A stretch of 64,000 nt of DNA from Acidobacteriota bacterium (GTDB lineage Bacteria > Actinomycetota > Acidimicrobiia > Spongiisociales > ZC4RG35): assembly GCA_022573225.1 (NCBI GenBank), contig JACZUI010000001.1, positions 112,883 through 176,882 on the forward strand. The letters are read 5' to 3'. Of this stretch, positions 2,350 to 55,575 are shown in pieces. Within the stretch, counting starts at the first letter, position 1. Every line of letters begins with the position of its first letter. The position numbers and the translations under genes are program-made. The notes below the pieces were generated by a model. That model saw only the letters and a list, made by a program, of their open reading frames with translations. It searched no databases and had not been told where the DNA came from.

Positions 2350-5300
2350 ATGAACAAGGGCCTACGGATAACCCGTCGCTTCACCAAGGCCGGAACCGAT
2401 CCCTACGACCAGATGGACTGGTCGCGCCGGGATTCCCGAATCACCAACCCAGACGGCTCAATTGTCTTTGAGATGACCGATGCCGAGATTCCGGCGAGCT
2501 GGTCGCAAATCGCTTCGGACATCATGGTGTCCAAGTACTTCCGCAAGGCGGGCGTCCCCCAATTCGATGGAGACGGAAGCCAGATTTTCGATGACGAAGG
2601 ACAACCGGTTCTCGGGACGGAGCACTCCGCCAAGCAGGTCTTCGATCGTCTCGCCAGCACCTGGCGGCACTGGGGCGAGAAAGAGAGTTACTTCGACTCA
2701 GCCGAGGATGCCGACGCCTTCGAGGACGAACTCAAATACATGCTCGCCAGCCAGGTGGCGGCGCCCAACTCACCGCAATGGTTCAACACCGGCCTCCACA
2801 ACGCATACGGGCTCACCGGCCCGGCTCAGGGATTCTGGTACGTCGACGGGGCCGACGGGCAGATGAAAGCCTCCCCCGATTCCTACAGCCGTCCCTCCCC
2901 CCACGCCTGTTTCATCCTGTCCGTGAAGGACGATCTGGTGAACCCGGGCGGAATCATGGATCTCTGGGTCAGAGAGGCTCGGATCTTCAAGTTCGGCTCC
3001 GGCGCCGGATCCAACTTCTCCTCCATCCGAGGAGAGAACGAGCGACTCTCAGGCGGAGGCAAGTCCTCCGGTGTCATGTCGTTTCTCAAGATCGGTGACC
3101 GCGCCGCCGGCGCGATCAAGTCGGGTGGCACCACTCGTCGCGCCGCCAAAATGGTGATTCTCGACGTCGACCATCCAGACATCGAGAAGTTCGTCGAGTG
3201 GAAAAAGGTCGAGGAGGACAAGGCCAAGCTGCTCATCAACCACGGTGGCTTCCCCGCTGATTTCAATGGCGAGGCTTATGCCACTGTCTCGGGGCAGAAC
3301 TCCAACAACTCGGTCCGCATCAACAACGATTTCGTGAAGGCAGTGGAGAGTGACGATGACTGGGATCTGATAAATCGGACCGACGGGTCGGTTCGCAAGA
3401 CGATCAAGGCCCGCGATCTGTGGACCACGATCGCAGAAGCCGCCTGGTCCTGTGCCGATCCTGGCCTTCAGTTCGACTCCACCATCAACGAGTGGCACAC
3501 CAGTCCGGCGGGTGGCCGAATTCGGGCGTCTAACCCATGTTCGGAATACCTTTTCTTGGACGACACGGCCTGCAATCTCGCATCGTTGAATCTGGTGAAG
3601 TTCTACGACGATCAATCCGGGGTCTTCGATATCGAGGCCTACCAGCATGCGATCCGGCTCTGGACGATCGTGCTCGAGATCTCGGTGGCCATGGCCCACT
3701 TCCCCTCCCGTGAGATTGCACAAGGCTCCTACGACTACCGGACTCTCGGGCTTGGCTACGCCAATCTCGGTTCACTGCTGATGCGTCAGGGCATCGCCTA
3801 TGACAGTGATGAGGGTCGGGCGATCGCCGGTGGGCTCACCTCGGTTCTCACCGGCTATTCGTATGCGACCTCGGCCGAGATCGCCGGCGTCACCGGGCCA
3901 TTCCCCAAGTACTCGGAGAACCGGGAATCCATGTTGAGAGTCATCCGGAACCACCGGAGGGCGGCCTACGACGACAAGGACTTTGAGGGCGTCACAACCA
4001 GAGTCATGGGCATCGACACCGACCTTTGCCCCGCCGACTTGCTCCAGGCCGCCCGCACCTCGTGGGACCTTGCGCTCGAGCGTGGCGAGGCCGACGGATA
4101 TCGCAACGCACAGGCCAGTGTTTTAGCGCCAACTGGAACAATTGGGTTGCTCATGGATTGTGACACCACCGGCGTCGAGCCTGACTTCGCCCTGGTGAAG
4201 TTCAAGAAGCTGGCCGGCGGCGGGTACTTCAAGATCGTGAACAAGTCGGTGGCGCCCGCCCTTGCCCGGCTGGGGTACCAACCTCAGGACATCAAGGATG
4301 TTGTCGAGTACATCGTGGGAACAAGCTCACTCGATGGAGCCCCGAACATCAACCGGGAGTCCCTGGTCGACAAGGGCTTCGACGACGAGGACCTGGCCAA
4401 GCTCGCGTCGGCACTTCCGTCGGTCTTCGACCTGAAGCACGCCTTCAACGTGTTCACCTTTGGTGAGGAGACGCTCCAGCGAATCGGGTTCGACGTGGGC
4501 AAGTACACCTCGTGGGACTTCAACCTTCTCAAGGCTCTCGGATTCAGCAGCCGGGAGATAGCCGAGGCCAACGACCACATCTGTGGCCGTCAGACCATCG
4601 AGGGCGCCCCGCATGTGAAGGATGAGGACCTAGAGATTTTCGACACCGCCAACAAGAACGGCAAGTACGGAACGCGATTCATCCATCACAACGGTCACAT
4701 CATGATGATGGCTGCGGCCCAGCCGTTCATCTCGGGTGCAATCTCGAAGACCATCAATATGCCTGAGGAGGTCACTCCGGAAGACATCGAGGGGGCCTAC
4801 CGACTGTCGTGGGAGCTCGGTCTCAAGGCGATGGCCATATACCGGGACGGCTCCAAGGCCGTACAGCCTCTCAACTCGGTTGCCGACGAGGGTGACGACG
4901 CCGAAGTCGAAGACGCCGCGATCACACTGGCGGTCGAGGCTGAGAAGGCGATTCACTGGGGCAGTCTGCCGGTTGGGATCTCACCGACCCAGGCATACGC
5001 CCGCGGGATGAAGCCGCCCCGGTTCCTGTTGCCTGCCCGGCGCGCCGGGTACAACCAGGAGGCCCGTGTCGGCGGTCACAAGATCTATATGCGCACCGGC
5101 GAGTACGACGACGGGACGCTTGGTGAGATCTTCATCGACCTGGCCAAGGAGGGCGCGACCCTGAAGGGGATCCTCTCCTGTTTCTCCATCGCGATCTCCA
5201 AGGGCCTCCAATACGGAGTGCCGTTGGAGGAGTTTGTCGACACCTTCACCTTCCAAACCTTCGAGCCGAGAGGCATGGTGGAGGGTCACGAGAACATCAA

Positions 5301-5759: not shown

Positions 5760-7049
5760 GTGTGTAGATCCCGGTGTCCGGCACCGGTATCTGCACACGC
5801 TCAGAAGGTTGCCAAAAACATCGATTTTGACGGAGCGTTCCCACAACTCCTGACGGTGACGGCTCTGGCAGCCGCTTTCGGGACGCTGTTGATGGCGCTC
5901 TGGGCGAAGCTGCCGTTTGCCATGGCGCCCGGGATGGGTCTAAACGCGTACTTCACCTTCACGGTCGTCCTGGGCATGGGCATCGCGTGGGAAACAGCGC
6001 TCGGCGCTGTGTTCATCTCGGGACTCCTATTCATGGTCATCGCCCTCACCGGGGCTCGGCGATGGATACTGAACGCAATACCCCTCCACCTGAAACACGC
6101 CATCACTGCAGGCATCGGGGCGTTCCTGGCGATTATCGGATTCGTGGGAGCCGGTTGGATAGGAGACAACTTTGTCACCTTCGTTCAAGTCGGCGACTTC
6201 ACCTCATGGCTTCCCTGGCTGGCGGTGGCTGGTGTCGTCGTGACAGGCGCGCTGATGGTGAACAAGGTCAAAGGAGCGATCCTGATCGGGATCCTCGCAA
6301 TAACGGCAATGGTGATCATCTTCGACGTTGACGCCTACAACTACGGTGGCGAGACTCTGGAGTCGTTTGCAGGCTTCGGTGGCTCGATCATCGGGTTCAC
6401 CGCACCCACAGACCTGATCGGTGCCATGGATCTCGGCGCGGCCTTGGGACTTGGGATAGTCAGCGTCGTGTTCACGTTCCTGTTCGTCGACTTCTTCGAC
6501 ACCGCGGGAACCCTCATCGGGTTGACCGACAAGGCCGGAATGCTCGACGAGAAGGGCCACATCCAGGCGCCTCGTGCAGCATTTGCTGCCGACGGTGCAG
6601 CCACCGCGGTGGGCGCAGCCTTGGGTACTTCGAGCACAACGACGTTCATCGAGTCCGCCGCCGGAGTCGAGGAGGGAGGAAGAACCGGGCTCACAGCCCT
6701 CACGGTCTCCGTCCTCTTCCTCGCAGCGATGTTCCTGTCGCCTCTGGCCCAGGCGATCCCGACGGTTGCCACCTCGGCCGCCCTCATCATCATCGGTGCG
6801 ATGATGATGACCGGCGCAACCAAGGTCGACTGGACCGACTATCGAAAGTCGATCCCGGCGTTCCTGGCGATCGTTGGAATGCCATTCACCTACTCGATCA
6901 CGTTCGGCATCAGCTTGGCAATAGTGACGCACACGTTCCTCTACGCAGTGAGCGGAAAGATCAAGGAGATCCACCCGATGATGTGGATCCTGACCCTGCT
7001 GATAATTGCCAACCAGACCGGCTTCATTGCCGATGTGTTCGGCGGCTAA
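5760..7049 (+). CDS. NCS2/AzgA-family purine (adenine/guanine/hypoxanthine) permease, N-terminus apparently short
   Basis: Contains APGMGLNAYFTFTVVLGMG, FVDFFDTAGTL and GTSSTTTFIESAAGV. The usual first helix (GxTTFxxMAYIxxVNP) is absent. The frame is closed by a TGA at 5754-5756. Confidence 0.8.
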   Translation: MCRSRCPAPVSAHAQKVAKNIDFDGAFPQLLTVTALAAAFGTLLMALWAKLPFAMAPGMGLNAYFTFTVVLGMGIAWETALGAVFISGLLFMVIALTGARRWILNAIPLHLKHAITAGIGAFLAIIGFVGAGWIGDNFVTFVQVGDFTSWLPWLAVAGVVVTGALMVNKVKGAILIGILAITAMVIIFDVDAYNYGGETLESFAGFGGSIIGFTAPTDLIGAMDLGAALGLGIVSVVFTFLFVDFFDTAGTLIGLTDKAGMLDEKGHIQAPRAAFAADGAATAVGAALGTSSTTTFIESAAGVEEGGRTGLTALTVSVLFLAAMFLSPLAQAIPTVATSAALIIIGAMMMTGATKVDWTDYRKSIPAFLAIVGMPFTYSITFGISLAIVTHTFLYAVSGKIKEIHPMMWILTLLIIANQTGFIADVFGG

Positions 7050-45165: not shown

Positions 45166-45687
45166 TTGACGATGGATGAATTGACCAGGGCCCTCTCGAC
45201 AGATCTCGAAGCAGCCTTCCCCGACCTCGTCACTGCCATGGGCGCAAGGTTGTTCTGGGGTCTGCGGGGCATGTGCAGAGATCATCAGGAAGCCGAAGAC
45301 CTCACCCAAGAGACCTTCATACGTGCATACAAGGCTCTCGACGGATACGACCGGGAGCGAGTGCGGGAGCTGCAACTGTCGCCGTGGATATGGACGATCG
45401 CCCTCAATCTCGGTCGCAATCACATACGGAATCGGGCACGCCGACCGAGCTTCGTTGCATTGCGGGACGAGGCGGTGGACGATCCGGAACTGCCCGACAG
45501 CGCGGCATGGGACCGAAGGTTCGCCGTCCTGAACGGCCATCAGAAGACCGCCGTGGTCCTTCGCCATGTCGTCGGGCTGGGGATCGCTGAGATCTCGCAG
45601 GCGGCCGGCCGACCCGAGGGGACCGTAAAGGCCGACATCCACCGGGGCCTGGAACGACTACGACGAACTATGGAGCAGGAGACATGA
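45166..45687 (+). CDS. ECF-type RNA polymerase sigma factor
   Basis: Region 2 is EDLTQETFIRAYKAL..WIWTIALNLGRN. Region 4 is TAVVLRHVVGLGIAEISQAAGRPEGTVKADIHRGLERLR. ATG 45172 is an alternative start. Confidence 0.85.
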   Translation: MTMDELTRALSTDLEAAFPDLVTAMGARLFWGLRGMCRDHQEAEDLTQETFIRAYKALDGYDRERVRELQLSPWIWTIALNLGRNHIRNRARRPSFVALRDEAVDDPELPDSAAWDRRFAVLNGHQKTAVVLRHVVGLGIAEISQAAGRPEGTVKADIHRGLERLRRTMEQET

Positions 45688-46442
45688 ACATAGAGACAGA
45701 GCTGGCCGATCTTGTAGGCGAGATCCCCGACGGCATGAGCGAAGGGGTTGCTCTCGGCACCGGGATCGCCGACGGCTACGACCTGTACGACTCCCCGGTG
45801 GGCGAGGTGGTGATCATCTTCAACCCGGAAGGAGTCTCCTCGGTGGACCTGGCCGATGGAGGATTCAAAGCAAGGTTCGCCCAACGATTCGGCAGGCAAC
45901 TGCTGAGAGCCGAGGCGCCGTCAGCTTGGCGAAAGCACATCGAGCCGGCCATCGACGCCGGGACCCCCGGTCGGCTGCCGGTCGACTTGAGGGCTGTCAC
46001 CGAGTTTCAGGCCGGGATTCTCAAGGTCGCTGCATCAATTCCCAAAGGCCAGGTCCGCTCGTACTCGTGGCTGGCCCATCAGGCCAATCGACCCAAGGCG
46101 GTCCGGGCCGTTGGGTCGACAATGGCGGCCAACCCGGTGCCGCTGATCATCCCGTGTCATCGTGTCGTCCGCTCCGATGGCCACATCGGTGCCTACTCGC
46201 TCGGAGGCGCCCAGAACAAGTGGGACCTGCTCGAGCATGAGGGAGCCGACCCACATCGTCTCGAGGATCTCGCCGGGAATCGCATCCGGGTGCAAGGGAA
46301 CAGCAGCAGCGGGATCTTCTGCTACCCGACCTGCCGGGCCATCCGACGCTCCAAGCCGACAAATGTCGTCAGCTTCCGATCGGTCGAGACCGCCGAGCAG
46401 GAGGGCTACCGAGCCTGCGAGCTCTGCCTCCCCTGCTGCTGA
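45684..46442 (+). CDS. O6-alkylguanine-DNA alkyltransferase (Ogt/MGMT) fused to a C-terminal Ada-type zinc domain
   Basis: Active site VPLIIPCHRVV. The C-terminus GIFCYPTCRAIRRSKPTNVVSFRSVETAEQEGYRACELCLP resembles the N-Ada Cys4 Zn module. ATGA overlap with the sigma gene. Confidence 0.8.
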   Translation: MNIETELADLVGEIPDGMSEGVALGTGIADGYDLYDSPVGEVVIIFNPEGVSSVDLADGGFKARFAQRFGRQLLRAEAPSAWRKHIEPAIDAGTPGRLPVDLRAVTEFQAGILKVAASIPKGQVRSYSWLAHQANRPKAVRAVGSTMAANPVPLIIPCHRVVRSDGHIGAYSLGGAQNKWDLLEHEGADPHRLEDLAGNRIRVQGNSSSGIFCYPTCRAIRRSKPTNVVSFRSVETAEQEGYRACELCLPCC

Positions 46443-46532: not shown

Positions 46533-47508
46533 CTGACCTGGGACTTCGCGCAATCGACGTTTCGCGACGTGTCGCGTCAGTTCTTAGACGTTCTCGTACT
46601 CGCGGCGTTGCGGTCAGATCGTCTGGCGCTGGTCCGGCCAGATGACCATGCCAGGGGGTTGCGTCTGTTGGTGAAACGGCATCGAGATATGGCGAGGCTG
46701 CGTGCCAAACATTGCTCACGTCTCCATGCGTTGCTCCTCGAACTCCAACCGGGCGGTATCAGCTCAAAGATCGGTGTTGCCAGCACAAACCGGCTCCTCG
46801 AAGACCTCACCATCGACGACGAAGCAGGCCGGTATCGGGTCCTTATCCCCTGTGAACTCGTCGATGACGTCGCCGGCCTCGACATCACGTTGAAGGCATC
46901 CAAGAAACGGATCGCAGCAGCATTCGCAGCGTCAGGGACATCGCTGACCGATATTGTTGGGGTCGGGCCTGTCTGTGCCGCGACCATCATTGGATACACA
47001 GGCGATGTGACCCGGTTCCCGACCAAGGGCCACTACGCGACGTACAACGCCACCGCCCCGATCGAAGCGTCATCCGGCAGTCATATGAGACACCGGTTGA
47101 ACCCGAGAGGGAACCGGGTGCTCAACCACGCCATCCACATCGCTGCGGTCACCCAGCTGCGCCACGCCACCCAAGGTCGGGTCTACTACGACCGCAAGAT
47201 CACCGAAGGCAAAACACCCAAAGAAGCAATCCGAGCGTTGAAACGACGCATCTCAGATGTCGTCTACCGCCACCTCATCACCGACAGCCGACAACACCGT
47301 ATCGGCTGAAAAAGGAGGGTCCGGGAGGACACCCAGGAACGTCTTCTAGTCCAGCGTGGCCGGCTCACATCCTGATACGCCGGCTCTTTGGACAAGTCCT
47401 TCCCGGACCCCGACATCAACGCTACGACCAATCGCGGCCCACCGCCAGCGGTCCGCTTCAACGCGCCCAGCCTCGTTCAAAAACATCCGCTTGACACAAA
47501 GAGGCTTC
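46533..47508 (+). mobile_element. IS110-family insertion sequence remnant (5' part missing)
   Basis: Encloses the truncated transposase and about 200 bp of 3' non-coding sequence. It ends directly at a GTTATGTGC core site. Confidence 0.55.
46569..47309 (+). pseudogene. IS110/IS116/IS902-family transposase, C-terminal two thirds only
   Basis: GVGPVCAATIIGYTGDVTRFPTKGHYATYNATAPIEASSG...NPRGNRVLNHAIH...YYDRKITEGKTPKEAIRALKRR. The N-terminal DEDD catalytic domain is absent. Confidence 0.75.
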
Positions 47509-49447: not shown

Positions 49448-49508
49448 GAGGACGGTTGAACGGACAGGCCACCCTTGCTCACCGCGACCGCTGCTCTGCC
49501 CGCTGGTC

Positions 49509-49541
49509 GCGTAACCACACTTCATCTGAGGTGTTGGTTCC
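49509..49541 (+). repeat. short attC-like hairpin (GCGTAACCACAC ... GTGTTGGTT)
   Basis: 8-bp stem with one extrahelical base. AAC and GTT triplets are at the ends. Confidence 0.25.
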
Positions 49542-49581
49542 ATTAGGGTTCCGACGCGATCCTCGACGAGGGAGGAGTGCC

Positions 49582-50358
49582 ATGGCAGATGTGATCCCGG
49601 TTGATGAAGATCAACTCCGTTTGGAAATCCAAAAGCACTACGCCGAGGTAGCGGATAGCCCTGACCATGAGTTCCACTTCCACACTGGTCGGGACGCCGC
49701 CCGACGGGTCGGTTACGACGAAGCCGTCATCAAGGACATACCTGATGACGTGATCGCTTCCTTTGCTGGGGTGGCCCACCCGTTCCATTTCGGTTTGCCA
49801 AAGCCAGGGGAGACGGTTCTCGATGTCGGCTCTGGAGCAGGTGTCGACGTCATCATCGCCGCCAAAGCAGTCGGCCCCGAAGGCCGGGTTATCGGTGTCG
49901 ACATGACACCCGAAATGCTCGACGCCGCTCGCCGTAACACCGAACGGATGGGGTTGGACAACGTCGAGTTCAGAAAAGGCCTAGTTGAACGTCTCCCCGT
50001 GGACGCCGAGTCGATCGACCTTGTCATCTCGAACGGTGTACTCAATCTCATGGTCGACAAGCACGGTGCCTACAGGCAGATCGCCCGTGCTCTCAAACCG
50101 GGTGGCCGTCTCCAGATCGCTGATATCTGCGTAGACAGGCCAGTTTCCGATAGTGCGAAACGGAACATCGATCTCTGGACTGGCTGAATTGCCGGTGCCC
50201 TGCCGTGTGCAGGGTGGGAAACGGTCATCACAGCCGTCGGATTCATCGATCTGGAATTCGGGCCGAGCGTCGACACCTACGGTGGAGCCTTAGGTGAGAA
50301 GAACGCCAGACTGTTCGGGACCTGGGGCTACCCGTTCCGAGCCCACAAACCTCTCTAA
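49582..50358 (+). CDS. SAM-dependent methyltransferase (ArsM/UbiE-like), candidate selenoprotein with in-frame TGA at 50185-50187
   Basis: SAM motif VLDVGSGAGVDV. The text reads ...RNIDLWTG-TGA-IAGALPCAGWETVITAVGFIDLEF...FGTWGYPFRAHKPL*. The TGA aligns with the Cys of the family motif LWxGC(I/V)xGA. A further 56 sense codons of family-like sequence follow before the TAA at 50356. Confidence 0.6.
50198..50214 (+). promoter_or_regulatory. candidate bacterial SECIS hairpin
   Basis: UGA AUUGCCGGUG CCCUGC-CGUGU-GCAGGG. A 6-bp stem with a GU-containing loop starts 10 nt after the UGA. Confidence 0.4.
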
Positions 50359-50434
50359 CAGCCGCCCACAATCGGCATTATCTTTGCGTTCGCTTGGCGC
50401 TGACAGCCGCCCATAAGTGCCGTTATGTGCGGCC
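50359..50434 (+). repeat. attC-like repeat A
   Basis: CCACAAT-CGGC-ATTATCT ... CCATAAG-TGCC-GTTATGTGCGGCC. The methyltransferase TAA lies in a TCTAAC box just upstream. Confidence 0.55.
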
Positions 50435-50459
50435 CTAGAATTCGACTCTTGGAGATAAT

Positions 50460-50744
50460 GTGGGAATCCTGATAGTCGTACTGGTGGTGGCGGGCCTTGC
50501 CCTGGGTTGGTGGGTGATGAGCGGCTCTTCGTCTGGAAGGCACCTGACCGATGAGCAGAGGCGGTGGGCAGCCCCAGAGCCCGAGCAGAACAAGAGCCGG
50601 GCAAAGCGTCCTATTCCGGCCTGGGCACTGGGTCTAATCATCGCCGCCGTGCTGTTCGGTATCGGGATCATCATTCTCCAGGCTCTCGGATTTGGTGACA
50701 ACCCGGTCCTCGGTGACGCGGTTTCCACCCTTCGCCCTCTGTGA
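50460..50744 (+). CDS. small two-helix membrane protein (cassette ORF)
   Basis: GTG preceded by GGAG. 94 aa with hydrophobic N- and C-terminal segments. Confidence 0.45.
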   Translation: MGILIVVLVVAGLALGWWVMSGSSSGRHLTDEQRRWAAPEPEQNKSRAKRPIPAWALGLIIAAVLFGIGIIILQALGFGDNPVLGDAVSTLRPL

Positions 50745-50860
50745 CCGGCAATCGGTCCATCGGGCGCGGGATTTCGTGTCTGGCTGGAGCCAGCGTGCTT
50801 CGCCTTTCATGGCGCAGCGAACCCGAACAGACACAAAAGCGTGTTTCGTTCATCTGAGCT

Positions 50861-50931
50861 GCGCATAACCGACATTATGTCCGGATCGTGGCGGTCGTCG
50901 CAGCCGCCCATAAGTGCCGTTATGTGCGGCC
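50861..50931 (+). repeat. attC-like repeat B (best copy)
   Basis: GCGCATAAC-CGAC-ATTATGT-...-GGCGG..CCGCC-CATAAG-TGCC-GTTATGTGC. The outer boxes pair 8/9. The 31-nt 3' core is identical to copy A. Confidence 0.6.
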
Positions 50932-50989
50932 TAGATTGTGACAAGGGGCAACGGATGGGAGGGTTTGAAGCGGAAGGTTGGAGCGCCGA

Positions 50990-51466
50990 ATGTCAGACGA
51001 ACGGAAAGAACGAGCGCGGATTCCTCCGAGGTGGTTCGTTCGCCTCTTCTGGTCTACGCACCGCGGCTTGTACCGCCTTACGGGTGGCCGATTCGGATTG
51101 AGGCGGGCGAAGCCCAACCGCTGGGGAATGATGCATCTCACGACCACCGGGCGTCGCACCGGCCAGGAGCGGAGTGTGATCCTCGGGTACATCGAGGATG
51201 GTCCGAACCTGGTCACCATGGCGATGAACGGCTGGGCCGATAGCGAGCCTGCGTGGTGGCTCAATCTGCAAGCGCAGCCCGAAGCCAGCGTCGATCTCGC
51301 CGACGGCCGACGCACGGTCAGAGGGCGGGCTGCAGAGGGAGAGGAACGCTCGCGACTGTGGGCCGGGTGGCGCGAAGTGAATACGGACCTGGATGGCTAC
51401 GCGGCGCTTCGGTCGGCTGAGACCGCCGTTGTGATCCTGGAGCCATCGACCGGCCCCGACCGATGA
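50990..51466 (+). CDS. DUF385 / deazaflavin (F420)-dependent nitroreductase-family protein (cassette ORF)
   Basis: LTTTGRRTGQERSVILGY...MNGWADSEPAWWLNLQAQP. Confidence 0.75.
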   Translation: MSDERKERARIPPRWFVRLFWSTHRGLYRLTGGRFGLRRAKPNRWGMMHLTTTGRRTGQERSVILGYIEDGPNLVTMAMNGWADSEPAWWLNLQAQPEASVDLADGRRTVRGRAAEGEERSRLWAGWREVNTDLDGYAALRSAETAVVILEPSTGPDR

Positions 51467-51480
51467 TGCATTTGCATCCA

Positions 51481-51575
51481 GCGCATATCGCACGCCCGGG
51501 GATTCTCGATTGAACGACGACCCCCACCCACAACCGGCAATATGCAGCCACGCATAAGTGCCGCTATTTGCGGTC
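51481..51575 (+). repeat. attC-like repeat C
   Basis: GCGCATATC ... CAGCCACGCATAAGTGCCGCTATTTGCGGTC. Confidence 0.5.
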
Positions 51576-51706
51576 GCTGAGAGCGGCTCAGGTCTGCACC
51601 GAATGACTGGCGTGGTGTAGATTCGGACTTAGGCCGACCGAACAGAGTCCACAGCGGCAAGCAGCGGACTCACGTATGTCGGTTCGCCATCGAAGAGGAG
51701 TGCAGC

Positions 51707-52162
51707 ATGGCGGCAATCGTCCACAGCGTTGAGATCGACAGAGGGCCTGCCGAAGTTTTCGCCTACGTTACCGATCCGTCCAAATTCACCGAGTGGCAGG
51801 CCGCTGTTGTAAGCGCACGTGCCGAAGGCGACGGGCCGTTGCAGCAAGGTTCCAGACTCGTCATGACACGCCGGATGGGGAAACGAGAGCAAACGATGAC
51901 GGCCGAGTTCACGGAATATGACTCCCCGCGAAGCTACGCGTTCCGGGTGCTCGACGGCCCGGTTCGGGCGTTGGGGAAGGGAAGCTTCGAGCCGCTCGGC
52001 GGCGGCGACCGCACACGCTTCACCTTCGAACTCGACTTCGAGGGCCACGGAATCGGCAAGCTGCTAGTGCCGTTGGTCGTACGAAGGCAGGCGGAGAAGG
52101 AGCTGGCTCAGAGCCACGAAGATCTGAAGATAAAGCTCGAGCAAAACCCTCAAGCGGATTAA
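51707..52162 (+). CDS. SRPBCC (polyketide cyclase/dehydrase-like) family protein (cassette ORF)
   Basis: MAAIVHSVEIDRGPAEVFAYVTDPSKFTEWQ. RBS GAGGAG. Confidence 0.75.
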   Translation: MAAIVHSVEIDRGPAEVFAYVTDPSKFTEWQAAVVSARAEGDGPLQQGSRLVMTRRMGKREQTMTAEFTEYDSPRSYAFRVLDGPVRALGKGSFEPLGGGDRTRFTFELDFEGHGIGKLLVPLVVRRQAEKELAQSHEDLKIKLEQNPQAD

Positions 52163-52236
52163 CGCACACTTGGAGAACAGCGCACGACTGAAGCCACTGC
52201 CCAGAGACCGCCTTTAAGTGCCGTTTTGTGCGGGCC
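52157..52236 (+). repeat. attC-like repeat D
   Basis: GATTAAC (contains the SRPBCC stop TAA)-GCAC-ACTTGG ... CCTTTAAG-TGCC-GTTTTGTGCGGGCC. Confidence 0.5.
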
Positions 52237-52289
52237 GGAAACCGGTGTTGGTGCCTTGGGGCACGGGTCGGTTTGGGTTGCTCTGACCG

Positions 52290-52823
52290 CTAGGAGACGG
52301 CGATAGGCCCTTCGACATGGGTGACTGCCCATACATCATCGACCACAACGAGTCGGTAGGTCAACCAGGTACCGCAGACACCTCCGCACCACATCGAAAC
52401 GGGAACAAGCCCGGTGTCAGCTCCGATGACGGGTTCACCGACACCGAGTATCGCAGCTCCCTCGATGGTGGGAGCCAAGTCAGGGGTTACCCAGTCCGAC
52501 GGGTCGTCGATCCAACGCACCACTCCGTATTCCGCGACGGCTTGTTCGATAGCCTCTCGCTCTGCGTCGGTCAGCTGTCGAGCAGATTCGCTGGCTGATG
52601 CAGTGGCGTTGCCGGCCGATGTGTCAATCCGGTTCTGGATCAGATACTCGGTGAACGGGGGCGGCCCTTCGGCAAAGCCGTGATCCTCGGTGATGAGTTT
52701 CACTAGGGCCGCAGCCATCATCTCAGGGGTCTGGTTCGCGCCGAAGTCGCCGCCAGTGCTCTCTTCGGTACCGCACGCAGCGACCAACACCGAAAACGCC
52801 AGGAATACAACTCCTATCCTCAT
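52290..52823 (-). CDS. hypothetical lipoprotein (cassette ORF, inverted orientation)
   Basis: MRIGVVFLAFSVLVAACGTE lipobox. No family recognised. Confidence 0.55.
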   Translation of the reverse strand: MRIGVVFLAFSVLVAACGTEESTGGDFGANQTPEMMAAALVKLITEDHGFAEGPPPFTEYLIQNRIDTSAGNATASASESARQLTDAEREAIEQAVAEYGVVRWIDDPSDWVTPDLAPTIEGAAILGVGEPVIGADTGLVPVSMWCGGVCGTWLTYRLVVVDDVWAVTHVEGPIAVS

Positions 52824-52860
52824 GCCCTTCAGACGATCAGTGTTCCCAACCGGTTCCCAC

Positions 52861-52943
52861 ACCTAATCGTGGCCGGGGCCAGACCAACGGCCTCGGCGTC
52901 AGCAGTCTCAAAACAGACCGCCATAGGTGCCGTTATGTGCGCC
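52861..52943 (+). repeat. attC-like repeat E
   Basis: ACCTAATC ... CAGACCGCCATAGG-TGCC-GTTATGTGCGCC. Confidence 0.5.
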
Positions 52944-52955
52944 TAATCCTCATCG

Positions 52956-53318
52956 TTAGACGTCCCCGTCCTTGAGACTCCGCAGGTAGTCGTATGAGAA
53001 GATCCCTGTTCGGTGTCCGTCGGGCCGGAACGTCAAGTTGATCCCATAACCGACCAACTCTGCGTCGCCAATTTCCACTTCGATCGGTCCCCTGAGAAGG
53101 ACTGCAAGGCGCCGCGCACCGTCCGGTTCACCACACGCTGCGCAGGGGCACGCTGCTCGCAGTTCTCGGGCGCTGAATCGTTGCTCAGTGCCGTTGTGCC
53201 ACACAAGAAGCATCTGAGTCCCGCCCTCTATCTCGATGCGCGTCGGCGGGTCCACGGTGCCGGAGGGTAACCGCTCGGCGAGAACGGAAACCAGAGGGAC
53301 AGGTCCAACAACCCGCAT
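52956..53318 (-). CDS. DUF971 family protein (cassette ORF, inverted orientation)
   Basis: LLVWHNGTEQRFSARELRAACPCAAC...GYGINLTFRPDGHRTGIFSYDYLRSL. Confidence 0.7.
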   Translation of the reverse strand: MRVVGPVPLVSVLAERLPSGTVDPPTRIEIEGGTQMLLVWHNGTEQRFSARELRAACPCAACGEPDGARRLAVLLRGPIEVEIGDAELVGYGINLTFRPDGHRTGIFSYDYLRSLKDGDV

Positions 53319-53367
53319 TATGTACGGTCAGATCAGCCGCCCATAAGTATCTGCGGATGGCGTTGCT
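53305..53367 (+). repeat. attC-like repeat F (degenerate, terminal)
   Basis: CAACAAC-CCGC-ATTATGT ... CAGCCGCCCATAAGTATCTGCGG. The GCCGTTATG segment of the core is missing. The next GTT is at 53361. Confidence 0.4.
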
Positions 53368-53628: not shown

Positions 53629-55575
53629 ATGCGGGATCTCAATCAAGAACAGCTAGCAGTCAACACGATCAAGGCGTTGGCAATGGACGCCGTTCAGAAG
53701 GCCAACAGTGGACACGCGGGCATGCCGATGGGAATGGCCGACATTGCGGTCACGCTGTGGTCGAAGCACCTCAACGTCGACCCCGACGCGCCGGAATGGC
53801 CCGATCGTGACCGGTTCGTCCTCTCCAACGGCCACGGGTCGATGCTCCTCTATTCGATGCTCCACCTCTCGGGGTTCCCACTGACGCTCGAAGACCTCCG
53901 CGACTTCAGACAGTGGGGGAGCCACACGGCCGGTCATCCCGAGCGTGACAACAGCCTTGGAATCGAGATGACCACCGGCCCGCTCGGCCAGGGTTTCGCA
54001 GCGGGAGTGGGCATGGCCATCGCCGAGACCCACCTTCGGGCCCGTCTCGGAGACGACCTGGTGAGCCATCGCACTTTTGGGTTCGTATCCGATGGCGATC
54101 TGATGGAGGGCATCAGCTCCGAAGCTGCCTCGCTGGCCGGCCATTTCGGCTTGGGCCGGCTCACCTACTTCTACGACGACAACCAGATCTCCATCGACGG
54201 GTCGACGGACATCACCTTTACCGAGAACGTTGCCGACAGATTCGCCGCATACCAATGGCATACCGTGACGATCGACGGTCATGACCGCAGAGCCATCAAC
54301 GAGGCGATCAGCGAGTGTCTTGCCGAACCAGACCGTCCGTCACTGGTCATATGCAAGACGCACATCGCTGATGGGGCGCCGAACCTCCACGACACCTCGG
54401 CCGCACACGGTCAACCCCTGGGCCATGACGAGATCAAACTGACCAAGGAAGCGATGGACTACCCCATCGACCCGGACTTCTTCGTCGACGACTCGGTCTA
54501 CGAGTTCTTCGGAACGGCAATGAACCGGGGTCGAGAAGCGCACGCCGCTTGGAGGACAAGGTTCGAATCCGCCGGAGGGACGCAGAGGGAGCTCTGGACC
54601 GCCCTGTACGGAGAGAGCCGGGTTTCTCTCGATGGCCCCGGGTTCGAAGTCGGGGACAAGGCCGCCACTCGAGACTCGGGAGGCCAGCTATTCGCTGAGA
54701 TCGCTTTGAAGGTGCCCGGATTCATCGGAGGCTCGGCCGACCTGGCGGGCTCGACCAAGACCGTGATCGAAAAGGGGCGTCTTTTCTCAAAGAGTGACCC
54801 CTCGGCACGCGACATCCCATTCGGAGTGCGAGAGCACTCGATGGGCGCCCTCGTCAACGGAATGTCCCTCCACGGCGGACTCCGCCCATATGGGGCGACC
54901 TTCTTCGTGTTCAGCGACTACATGCGGCCCGCTGTCCGGCTTTCCGCTCTCATGGAGACACCATCTATCTGGGTGTGGACCCACGAGTCGATTTTCCTCG
55001 GGGAGGATGGCCCCACCCACCAGCCGATCGAGCACCTCGCGTCGCTGCGGGCGATGCCCAACCTGTGGGTGATTCGGCCGGCCGACGCCAACGAGACCCT
55101 GGAGGCGTGGGAGTTGGCCCTCAATCGTCACGACGGGCCTGTGGCCCTCCTTTTCACCCGGCAGGGATTGCCGAACCTGGAGAGAGTGCCCGGGGCCGTA
55201 GCTCGGGGCGGATACATCAGACGCGACGGCAAGGACGTAACCCTGATCGCCACCGGGTCAGAGGTGAGTGCGGCCTTGGCCGCGGCCGATCTGCTCGACG
55301 CCGATGGGATCGGGGCCCAAGTGGTCAGCCTTCCATGCTGGGAGCTGTTCTTCGCCCAGGATGAGGAGTATCAGCAGAAGGTCCTCGGGACCGCACCGCG
55401 GGTGAGCGTTGAGGCCGGTTCCACGTTCGGGTGGGAGCGGATCATCGGGGATGACGGACTCGCCATCGGGCTCGACCGCTTCGGCGCCTCAGCCCCCGAC
55501 ACGGTGCTCGCCGAGCAGTTCGGTTTCACCCCCGAGTCGATCGCCACCCAAACCCAGCAGCATCTGAACCGCTGA
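53629..55575 (+). CDS. tkt: transketolase
   Basis: [34 protein letters not shown] and [19 protein letters not shown]. Confidence 0.95.

Follow-up and report, generated by a model that had tools for sequence, protein, structure and literature searches.

A candidate selenocysteine-containing ArsM-like methyltransferase with a covarying SECIS hairpin, encoded next to an attC-like array

Introduction

Arsenite methyltransferase of the PRK11873/NF008823 type is listed as an experimentally verified prokaryotic selenoprotein, citing Fomenko et al., Science 2007 (PMC9312934, PMC13188914), and a 2026 review gives UxxG, with U for selenocysteine (Sec), as its Sec motif (PMC13188914). The same motif is listed for the ArsM fusion selenoproteins (PMC13188914), and a 2008 Global Ocean Sampling (GOS) survey of marine metagenomes assigned 8 Sec and 245 cysteine (Cys) sequences to the arsenite methyltransferase family (PMC2398784). 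Here we analyse a gene within a 64-kb stretch of contig JACZUI010000001.1 (GenBank assembly GCA_022573225.1); the whole stretch is referred to as the window, and all coordinates follow its numbering. Positions 49582-50358 very probably form one gene for an ArsM-like class I S-adenosylmethionine (SAM) methyltransferase that contains Sec, encoded by an in-frame TGA at which current annotation ends the protein.

The element expected downstream of such a codon is well described. In the model of the bacterial Sec insertion sequence (bSECIS), an apical loop of 3-9 nt sits on a stem of 4-16 bp (PMC13188914). One of the first two loop positions is a G, usually followed by G or U (PMC13188914), the loop lies 16-37 nt from the UGA, and the minimum free energy is -7.5 kcal/mol or lower (PMC13188914).

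The window protein shares with the PRK11873/NF008823 selenoprotein its superfamily, the position of Sec, the UxxG motif, a single Sec, a SECIS within the open reading frame (ORF) and the existence of Cys homologues. It differs in scoring under the cut-off of that model and in belonging to a clade without the other two arsenic-ligand cysteines. The ArsM/AhpD (NF041537), ArsM/DUF2284 (NF041536) and methyltransferase/UXPK-star (NF047649) selenoproteins are matched in the methyltransferase domain only, and the AhpD and DUF2284 domains, second Sec and UXPK C-terminus of these fusions are not in the window protein. Since ArsM-type selenoproteins with UxxG have been known since 2007, the gene is not new in kind; a Sec-dominant clade that lacks two of the cysteines is not obviously present in the reviews or in the GOS survey.

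Results

A conserved in-frame TGA and the frame beyond it

The methyltransferase frame reaches its TGA after ...RNIDLWTG and then continues through 56 sense codons (IAGALPCAGWETVITAVGF...FRAHKPL) to a TAA at 50356-50358 (Table 1). This is the only TGA in the frame, and the translation of the full frame ends in ...AHKPL. Gene callers stop the protein at the TGA, as does GenBank record MCH8982634.1 (201 aa), and nearly all of the roughly 100 closest clusters in a large protein collection are called at 201-202 residues with the same end. From base composition (61% GC), we estimate that a stop-free run of 56 codons would arise by chance with a probability of about 0.17. Because neither the length of the extension nor the folding energy of the hairpin that follows the TGA exceeds chance alone, the case for Sec rests on comparative evidence, and the observation is significant because the extension is homologous, the TGA is conserved and the stem covaries.

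Table 1. Positions of the features discussed in the text (window numbering).
Feature	Position	Strand	Basis
Shine-Dalgarno-like GGGAGGAG, 4 nt before ATG 49582	49570..49577	+	direct sequence reading
Full putative selenoprotein coding sequence, 258 residues, U at 202, stop TAA included	49582..50358	+	translation
Val64, column of CmArsM As(III) ligand Cys72 (AGVAHP)	49771..49773	+	PDB alignment
SAM-binding motif I VLDVGSGAG, residues 79-87	49816..49842	+	aligns to CmArsM SAM site
Gly152, column of CmArsM As(III) ligand Cys174 (SNGVLNL)	50035..50037	+	PDB alignment
Candidate Sec codon UGA, residue 202, motif U-I-A-G = UxxG	50185..50187	+	PDB and homologue alignments
56-codon post-UGA extension	50188..50355	+	aligns to C-termini of Cys-type relatives
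Candidate bacterial SECIS hairpin, stem GCCCUGC / GCAGGGU, loop CGUGU	50197..50215	+	fold, bSECIS criteria, covariation
First attC-like element, ~80-nt imperfect palindrome overlapping the stop codon	50355..50434	+	repeat families D1/D3, fuzzy search, single-stranded DNA folds
Array of 6-7 attC-like elements, methyltransferase gene at 5' edge	50355..53350	.	repeat search and single-stranded DNA folds

Comparison with relatives places a cysteine where the window has its TGA. In an alignment of 12 full-length relatives (A1; 53-59% identity), which extends across the TGA and the entire extension, this column is Cys in 11 sequences and Trp in the remaining one. We also surveyed the closest relatives at the DNA level, in 80 loci from GTDB species-representative genomes, and found TGA at the column in 77, TGC in two and TAG in one. 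The TGA loci cover Acidimicrobiia, Nitriliruptoraceae, other Actinomycetota, Dormibacterota, Chloroflexota, Alpha-, Beta- and Deltaproteobacteria and Binatia, which amounts to at least five phyla, and two of the carriers, Pseudonocardia asaccharolytica DSM 44247 and Actinomycetospora cinnamomea DSM 45771, are in culture. Judged from these 77 of the 80 closest species loci, Sec rather than Cys appears to be the rule in this methyltransferase clade.

The frame beyond the TGA behaves like the frame before it. Variability at the three codon positions amounts to 0.163/0.136/0.380 upstream of the TGA and to 0.195/0.157/0.371 downstream, and the final stop lies 55-57 codons past the TGA in 59 of 71 sequences; by this pattern of variation the extension is under protein-coding selection. 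Ten contigs, drawn from independent assemblies and samples, carry the identical gene with its TGA and extension.

Two members of the Geodermatophilaceae carry other codons at this column. Modestobacter sp. DSM 44400 (locus L071, 6586-6588) has TAG, with the downstream frame intact and a SECIS-like hairpin, and its relative Blastococcus deserti (WP_376873747.1, P0111) has TGG, encoding Trp. The two appear to have left the Sec state by different routes, and the TAG form might represent a pseudogene or a more unusual case.

A covarying hairpin downstream of the TGA

The hairpin CCCTGC-CGTGT-GCAGGG begins exactly 10 nt past the TGA. Including a closing G.U pair, the helix spans 50197-50203 and 50209-50215, with the apical loop at 50204-50208. 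It has the loop CGUGU, 8 uninterrupted pairs, a spacing of 16 nt between UGA and loop and a folding energy of -11.0 kcal/mol, so that all four properties fall within the ranges of the bacterial model given above. Like the consensus used by bSECISearch (as described in PMC13188914), it is a stem-loop inside the ORF with a 5-nt loop and a G at loop position 2 followed by U. It differs in that its spacing stands at the lower limit of the model and in that variants within the clade have a mismatched stem or one shifted by 2 nt. Its sequence is unrelated to that of the archetypal SECIS of E. coli fdhF.

To evaluate the stem, we used an alignment of 71 Sec-type sequences (A2), which are ungapped and in register, and compared the named helix with controls in which the pairing partners were slid by 1-3 columns and with 500 column shuffles. 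In the named helix 94.4% of cells are paired, as against 18-47% for the slid partners; double-sided changes number 30 cells against 7 or fewer, and the covariation score is 0.235 against 0.049 or less. None of the 500 shuffles reaches the observed value for paired cells, double-sided cells or covariation score. Two of the pairs are particularly informative. Pair 14/30 (GC in 48 sequences, CG in 15) joins the second base of an Ala/Gly codon to the third base of a Gly codon, and pair 18/26 (GC in 54, UA in 13) joins the third base of a Leu codon to the second base of an Ala/Glu codon. In each case a synonymous base is coupled to a non-synonymous base of another codon, and selection on the protein alone is therefore insufficient to explain the covariation.

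The loop is likewise tied to the coding sequence. Its CGUG is encoded by Pro-Cys (CCG UGY), with the UGU codon of Cys209, seven residues beyond the candidate Sec, at 50206-50208. Variants in the clade have Arg or Gly in place of Cys209, and their loops still hold G and U; the conservation of 'LPC' in the Sec forms would thus be at least partly an RNA constraint. We considered Cys209 as a resolving cysteine and do not favour this role, because its codon forms the SECIS loop and because of the Arg and Gly variants. For the Arg-type variants, a GCCC/GGGC stem shifted by 2 nt would keep a CGUGC/A loop; a purely shifted-stem model was not retained, since a stem in the original register with one mismatch fits too.

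The SECIS is intact in the window and in its four closest relatives (L001-L004), and the Cys-type locus L057 is without a hairpin at the SECIS position. A second Cys-type locus, L063 (Kribbellaceae, TGC, 6586-6640), has a partly degraded hairpin with CGUGC at that position, which looks like a fossil SECIS left after a recent switch from Sec to Cys.

Selenocysteine genes next to the gene in relatives

In several relatives the methyltransferase gene lies close to the genes for Sec decoding. ARAGORN places tRNA-Sec about 0.1-3.3 kb from the gene in five loci (L014, L035, L059, L061, L066), in a survey in which about 17 tRNAs of any kind were detected over the 80 loci. In L059 (1171-7866) the order is selA (567 bits), selB (431 bits), a wecA-like gene, tRNA-Sec, the methyltransferase and selD (533 bits); selA and selB stand directly upstream of the gene in L014 and L061, and selB and selD adjoin it in L066. 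This gene order suggests that the methyltransferase has been co-inherited with the Sec trait, and the protein is possibly linked in function to selenium handling.

In L035, a 446-aa tyrosine recombinase (3447-4981) adjoins tRNA-Sec about 1 kb upstream of the methyltransferase gene, and this locus may be an island integrated at tRNA-Sec.

An ArsM-like fold completed by the extension

The read-through product, with Cys placed at the TGA, matches Pfam Methyltransf_31 at 1.9e-33. Its best NCBIfam matches are NF041537 (223 bits), NF041536 (218 bits), NF008823, the ArsM subfamily (216.4 bits), and NF047649 (212 bits). Within SAM motif I, residues V79, G83, S84, G85 and G87 are invariant in A1. The best sequence relatives of solved structure are the CmArsM chains 4fr0 and 4kw7 (E = 1.7e-27), and in the alignment to PDB sequences the TGA column corresponds to CmArsM Cys224 (LYGECLGGAL) and human AS3MT Cys206.

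An AlphaFold model built from A1 has a predicted local distance difference test score (pLDDT) of 85.5 and a predicted template modelling score (pTM) of 0.88. The 13 best PDB matches found by Foldseek are all ArsM or AS3MT (TM-score 0.62-0.72 normalised to the query, identity 25-33%). In this model the extension forms a helix (residues 209-219) and two beta-strands (222-226 and 247-255), with pLDDT values per 10-residue block of 96, 95, 67, 80 and 96, that is, mostly high confidence. Since the extension supplies this helix and the last two beta-strands, the 201-residue product of the current annotation would be an incomplete fold.

Alternative explanations for the TGA

The preliminary description of the window had read the TGA as Sec in place of a conserved Cys, with a SECIS-like hairpin downstream. 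The frame end, the 56 further codons and the hairpin 10 nt on are all where it placed them. Cys in 11 of the 12 homologues, TGA in 77 of the 80 loci, the covarying hairpin and the sel genes beside the gene in relatives bear out its reading of the codon, the properties of the hairpin agree with the bSECIS model, and the downstream codons proved to be both homologous to those of relatives and under coding selection. Several observations weigh against decoding as Sec. The hairpin region folds no better than its dinucleotide shuffles (z = -0.02), and z-scores in the window and six relatives range from -0.82 to +0.34; folding energy is uninformative in such GC-rich coding sequence, which is why covariation was used instead. 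With mismatched stems disallowed, 45 of the 71 Sec-type sequences pass the bSECIS criteria. A search against Rfam returned nothing at gathering thresholds and only noise at E <= 10; Rfam contains no model covering the present SECIS. Neither tRNA-Sec nor selA, selB or selD was found in the 64-kb window, whose sole tRNA is tRNA-Gln, so that Sec decoding in this particular host is presumed. The adjacency of sel genes in relatives may reflect only that the methyltransferase is a client of the machinery, with no role of its own in selenium metabolism. Finally, the window protein falls under the curated cut-off of every ArsM-type NCBIfam model (263 bits for NF008823, 510 for NF041537, 575 for NF041536 and 460 for NF047649).

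These points have to be set against what the other explanations would require. If the TGA were a true stop, the gene would be a pseudogene or would encode a 201-residue methyltransferase, with the downstream frame as a decaying remnant. The gene callers and MCH8982634.1 do end there, an open run of this length is not improbable on its own, and the window is without Sec machinery. A remnant, however, would not persist over divergence of this depth (52-85% identity), with an intact frame and the same endpoint in 77 species of at least five phyla and with third-position variation that resembles the upstream part, and the shortened product would lose a helix and the last two strands; we regard a true stop as very improbable. 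An error in sequencing or assembly, with TGC or TGT as the real Cys codon, can effectively be dismissed. Single-base errors do occur in metagenome assemblies and more distant homologues have Cys, but the same TGA stands in 10 contigs from independent assemblies and in 77 of 80 other species. We also considered that the UGA might be read through without Sec, by a near-cognate or suppressor tRNA that inserts Trp, Cys or another residue. The sel genes not seen in the window would fit this, as would the TGG of Blastococcus deserti and the TAG of Modestobacter, which illustrate that the column can leave the Sec state. A covarying hairpin with a G-U loop at SECIS spacing is nevertheless specific to SelB-dependent decoding, five relatives have the gene flanked by tRNA-Sec and sel genes, and the SECIS is intact in the window and in L001-L004, so that we judge Sec-independent read-through to be quite improbable. 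Decoding of the UGA as Sec is the explanation that we retain.

Two of three arsenic ligands are replaced

CmArsM, CrArsM and human AS3MT (4fr0, 6cx6, 5evj, 8xt7) share with the window protein the SAM motif, the column of Cys224/Cys206 and the fold. They differ in length, at 320-390 residues with an extra C-terminal domain compared with 258 residues here, and in their arsenic ligands. Enzymes of the CmArsM type bind As(III) through C72, C174 and C224, whereas the window protein keeps only the third position, as the putative Sec. The columns of the other two are Val64 and Gly152 when aligned to 4fr0/4kw7, in line with the preliminary description, which had noted that neither is Cys. Among the 66 relatives' loci that could be parsed, the Cys72 column is V, I, M or T in every one and the Cys174 column is Gly in every one.

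The conserved neighbours of the methyltransferase are genes of a sulfur type. In 9-15 of 53 loci, mostly from Actinomycetota, an MBL-fold (metallo-beta-lactamase) enzyme with two rhodanese domains and an MFS (major facilitator superfamily) transporter precede the methyltransferase, and a regulator that combines an ArsR-type helix-turn-helix (HTH) domain with rhodanese is transcribed divergently. The orthologue in L003 (2608-6774), which is 82% identical to the window protein, carries this rhodanese/MFS/methyltransferase operon. The MBL-fold/double-rhodanese neighbour resembles a persulfide dioxygenase. An ars transporter or reductase is absent among the conserved neighbour clusters, in which no probe search for ArsC, Acr3 or ArsB was made.

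With one of three As(III) ligands kept and sulfur-type neighbours, we judge inorganic arsenite to be the less likely substrate. Our tentative preference, which stays short of a conclusion, is for a species of sulfur or selenium, or else for a metalloid that already carries alkyl groups; the doubt that the preliminary description raised about arsenite agrees with the loss of both cysteines across the clade and with the neighbourhood. The protein might instead be a bona fide ArsM that detoxifies As(III), with Sec as a better arsenic ligand. Its closest solved structures and sequences are ArsM and AS3MT, its Sec would take the place of an As(III) ligand, 'arsenite methyltransferase' is the published name of the family, and some relatives are so named in the sources. 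Yet the C72 and C174 columns are without Cys in all 66 loci parsed, the NF008823 score of 216 stays below the cut-off of 263, and the conserved neighbours are ArsR-HTH/rhodanese, MBL-fold/rhodanese and MFS genes rather than ars clusters. On balance we think a detoxifying ArsM unlikely.

An attC-like array 3' of the gene

The stop codon of the gene lies within the first of a series of attC-like elements. This element has the ends GCCGCCCACAA...TTATGTGCGGC and contains the 31-nt unit CAGCCGCCCATAAGTGCCGTTATGTGCGGCC. Between there and about 53350 the unit occurs 6-7 times, with one copy behind each of five short unrelated ORFs, and the rest of the window has none. The ORFs encode a 94-aa protein, a member of the F420H2-quinone-reductase family, an SRPBCC protein, a 190-aa protein and a DUF971/GBBH-like_N protein. 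Folded as single-stranded DNA, the elements give long, imperfectly paired hairpins whose conserved ends resemble R''/R' boxes (bottom strand ...ACATAAC, top strand GTTATGT, each one base off the consensus) and whose centres vary. The core of the repeat turns up in at least 120 stretches of metagenome sequence; a contig often has several copies, with as many as 8 to an array (L190).

The arrangement resembles integron cassettes and clusters of attC sites lacking integrases (CALINs) in that a palindrome directly follows each ORF, with one element per short unrelated ORF and the elements clustered locally. Unlike integron cassettes, the window has no IntI and no repeat on the 5' side. No repeat was present in 49448-49581, immediately 5' of the gene, and neither motif regular expressions nor tblastn with an IntI1 probe revealed an integron integrase in the window. 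Recombinases beside the arrays L092 and L190 were considered as IntI and rejected; they score 63 and 33 bits against TIGR02249 (cut-off 265) and are generic tyrosine recombinases. In PLSDB there was no relative above 45% identity, so that no plasmid carriage was seen.

In L002, from another Acidimicrobiia metagenome-assembled genome (MAG), the orthologue (290-1057) is bracketed by repeats at 165-195 and 1108-1138, and the four closest orthologues have no upstream homology in common. The preliminary description had placed the gene inside a cassette region. This stands in part: the gene is at the edge of an array, has a 3' repeat and is flanked on both sides in L002, but there is no 5' repeat in the window, and no integron integrase was found there or beside the sampled arrays. 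We read the gene as abutting, and in L002 as lying within, an attC-like, CALIN-like array, the status of which as an integron is unproven. The array may be CALIN-like or a non-canonical cassette system in Acidimicrobiia; as an alternative to attC, the elements could be of the repetitive extragenic palindromic (REP) or bacterial interspersed mosaic element (BIME) kind.

One assembly of the same population, L085 (~1590-1788, compared with the window from 50420 onward), departs from the window exactly inside the repeat (...ATAAGTGC|CGTTATG), at a point that adjoins the putative R' box at its GTT. The sequence beyond this point in L085 looks like the 3' end of an IS30-like transposase gene in L002 (1454-1873), read as the reverse complement. 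A divergence inside the repeat makes the repeats seem to be hot spots of insertion or rearrangement.

Other features of the window and its source

A fragment of an IS110-family transposase (46569-47309, Transposase_20 only, 246 aa) precedes the methyltransferase gene by about 2.3 kb. A tRNA-Gln(CTG) gene (45492-45575, minus strand) stands just before an Ogt/Ada-like gene (45684-46442) of unusual domain order, with the Ada zinc-binding domain at the C-terminus. We considered the Ogt/Ada-like gene, whose family includes known Sec proteins, as a further Sec gene and rejected it, as it has an ordinary PCHR cysteine. A scan of the window for additional TGA read-through, by G+C content at third codon positions (GC3), gave off-frame artefacts and missed the methyltransferase itself, a true positive.

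The transketolase gene at 53629-55572 has named best matches only in Acidimicrobiia and other Actinomycetota, at 72-76% identity, and the closest methyltransferase orthologues are also from Acidimicrobiia. By these affinities the window belongs to an Acidimicrobiia genome, and the Acidobacteriota label on the GenBank source MAG is probably a label or binning error.

Discussion

We propose that UGA 50185-50187 is decoded as Sec. The hairpin at 50197-50215 would act as a bacterial SECIS and recruit SelB.GTP.Sec-tRNA(Sec) to the ribosome, and translation would run on through the 56 codons, completing the Rossmann-type fold. Sec202 would then occupy the position of CmArsM Cys224 and human AS3MT Cys206, beside the methyl group of SAM, where it would most likely bind or activate a soft substrate for methyl transfer. 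The incorporation of selenium, the Sec machinery of the host and the substrate are the parts of this scheme that we infer.

Two further readings, taken jointly, seem doubtful to us and have consequences that merit stating. In one, the protein would be a methyltransferase for selenium or sulfur species tied to the Sec machinery; candidate substrates may be selenide, a persulfide or a thiol, with the genetic coupling visible as tRNA-Sec (selC)-methyltransferase-selD in L059 and L066. In the other, the gene would be an Acidimicrobiia cassette in an attC-like array, and a selenoprotein gene would circulate in the cassette pool, the array being integrase-less or non-canonically serviced. Classical integrons are not known to be common in Actinomycetota, the phylum concerned. 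The attC-like array is of separate interest for the biology of cassettes in that phylum.

The finding does not overturn current knowledge, and a selenoprotein specialist would recognise the family at once. Its significance lies in the annotation and in the chemistry of the stand-alone form. About one fifth of the fold, together with the putative catalytic Sec, is missing from the current annotation of these methyltransferase clusters, and this mis-annotation merits a dedicated model for the stand-alone form. With a lone chalcogen ligand, the clade offers a clean system in which to probe the role of a single active-site Sec in an ArsM-type methyltransferase and the substrate on which it acts, and the two cultured actinomycetes that carry the gene allow direct testing. 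If the methyltransferase does act on selenium or sulfur species in association with the Sec machinery, it would help to handle the element on which its own Sec depends.

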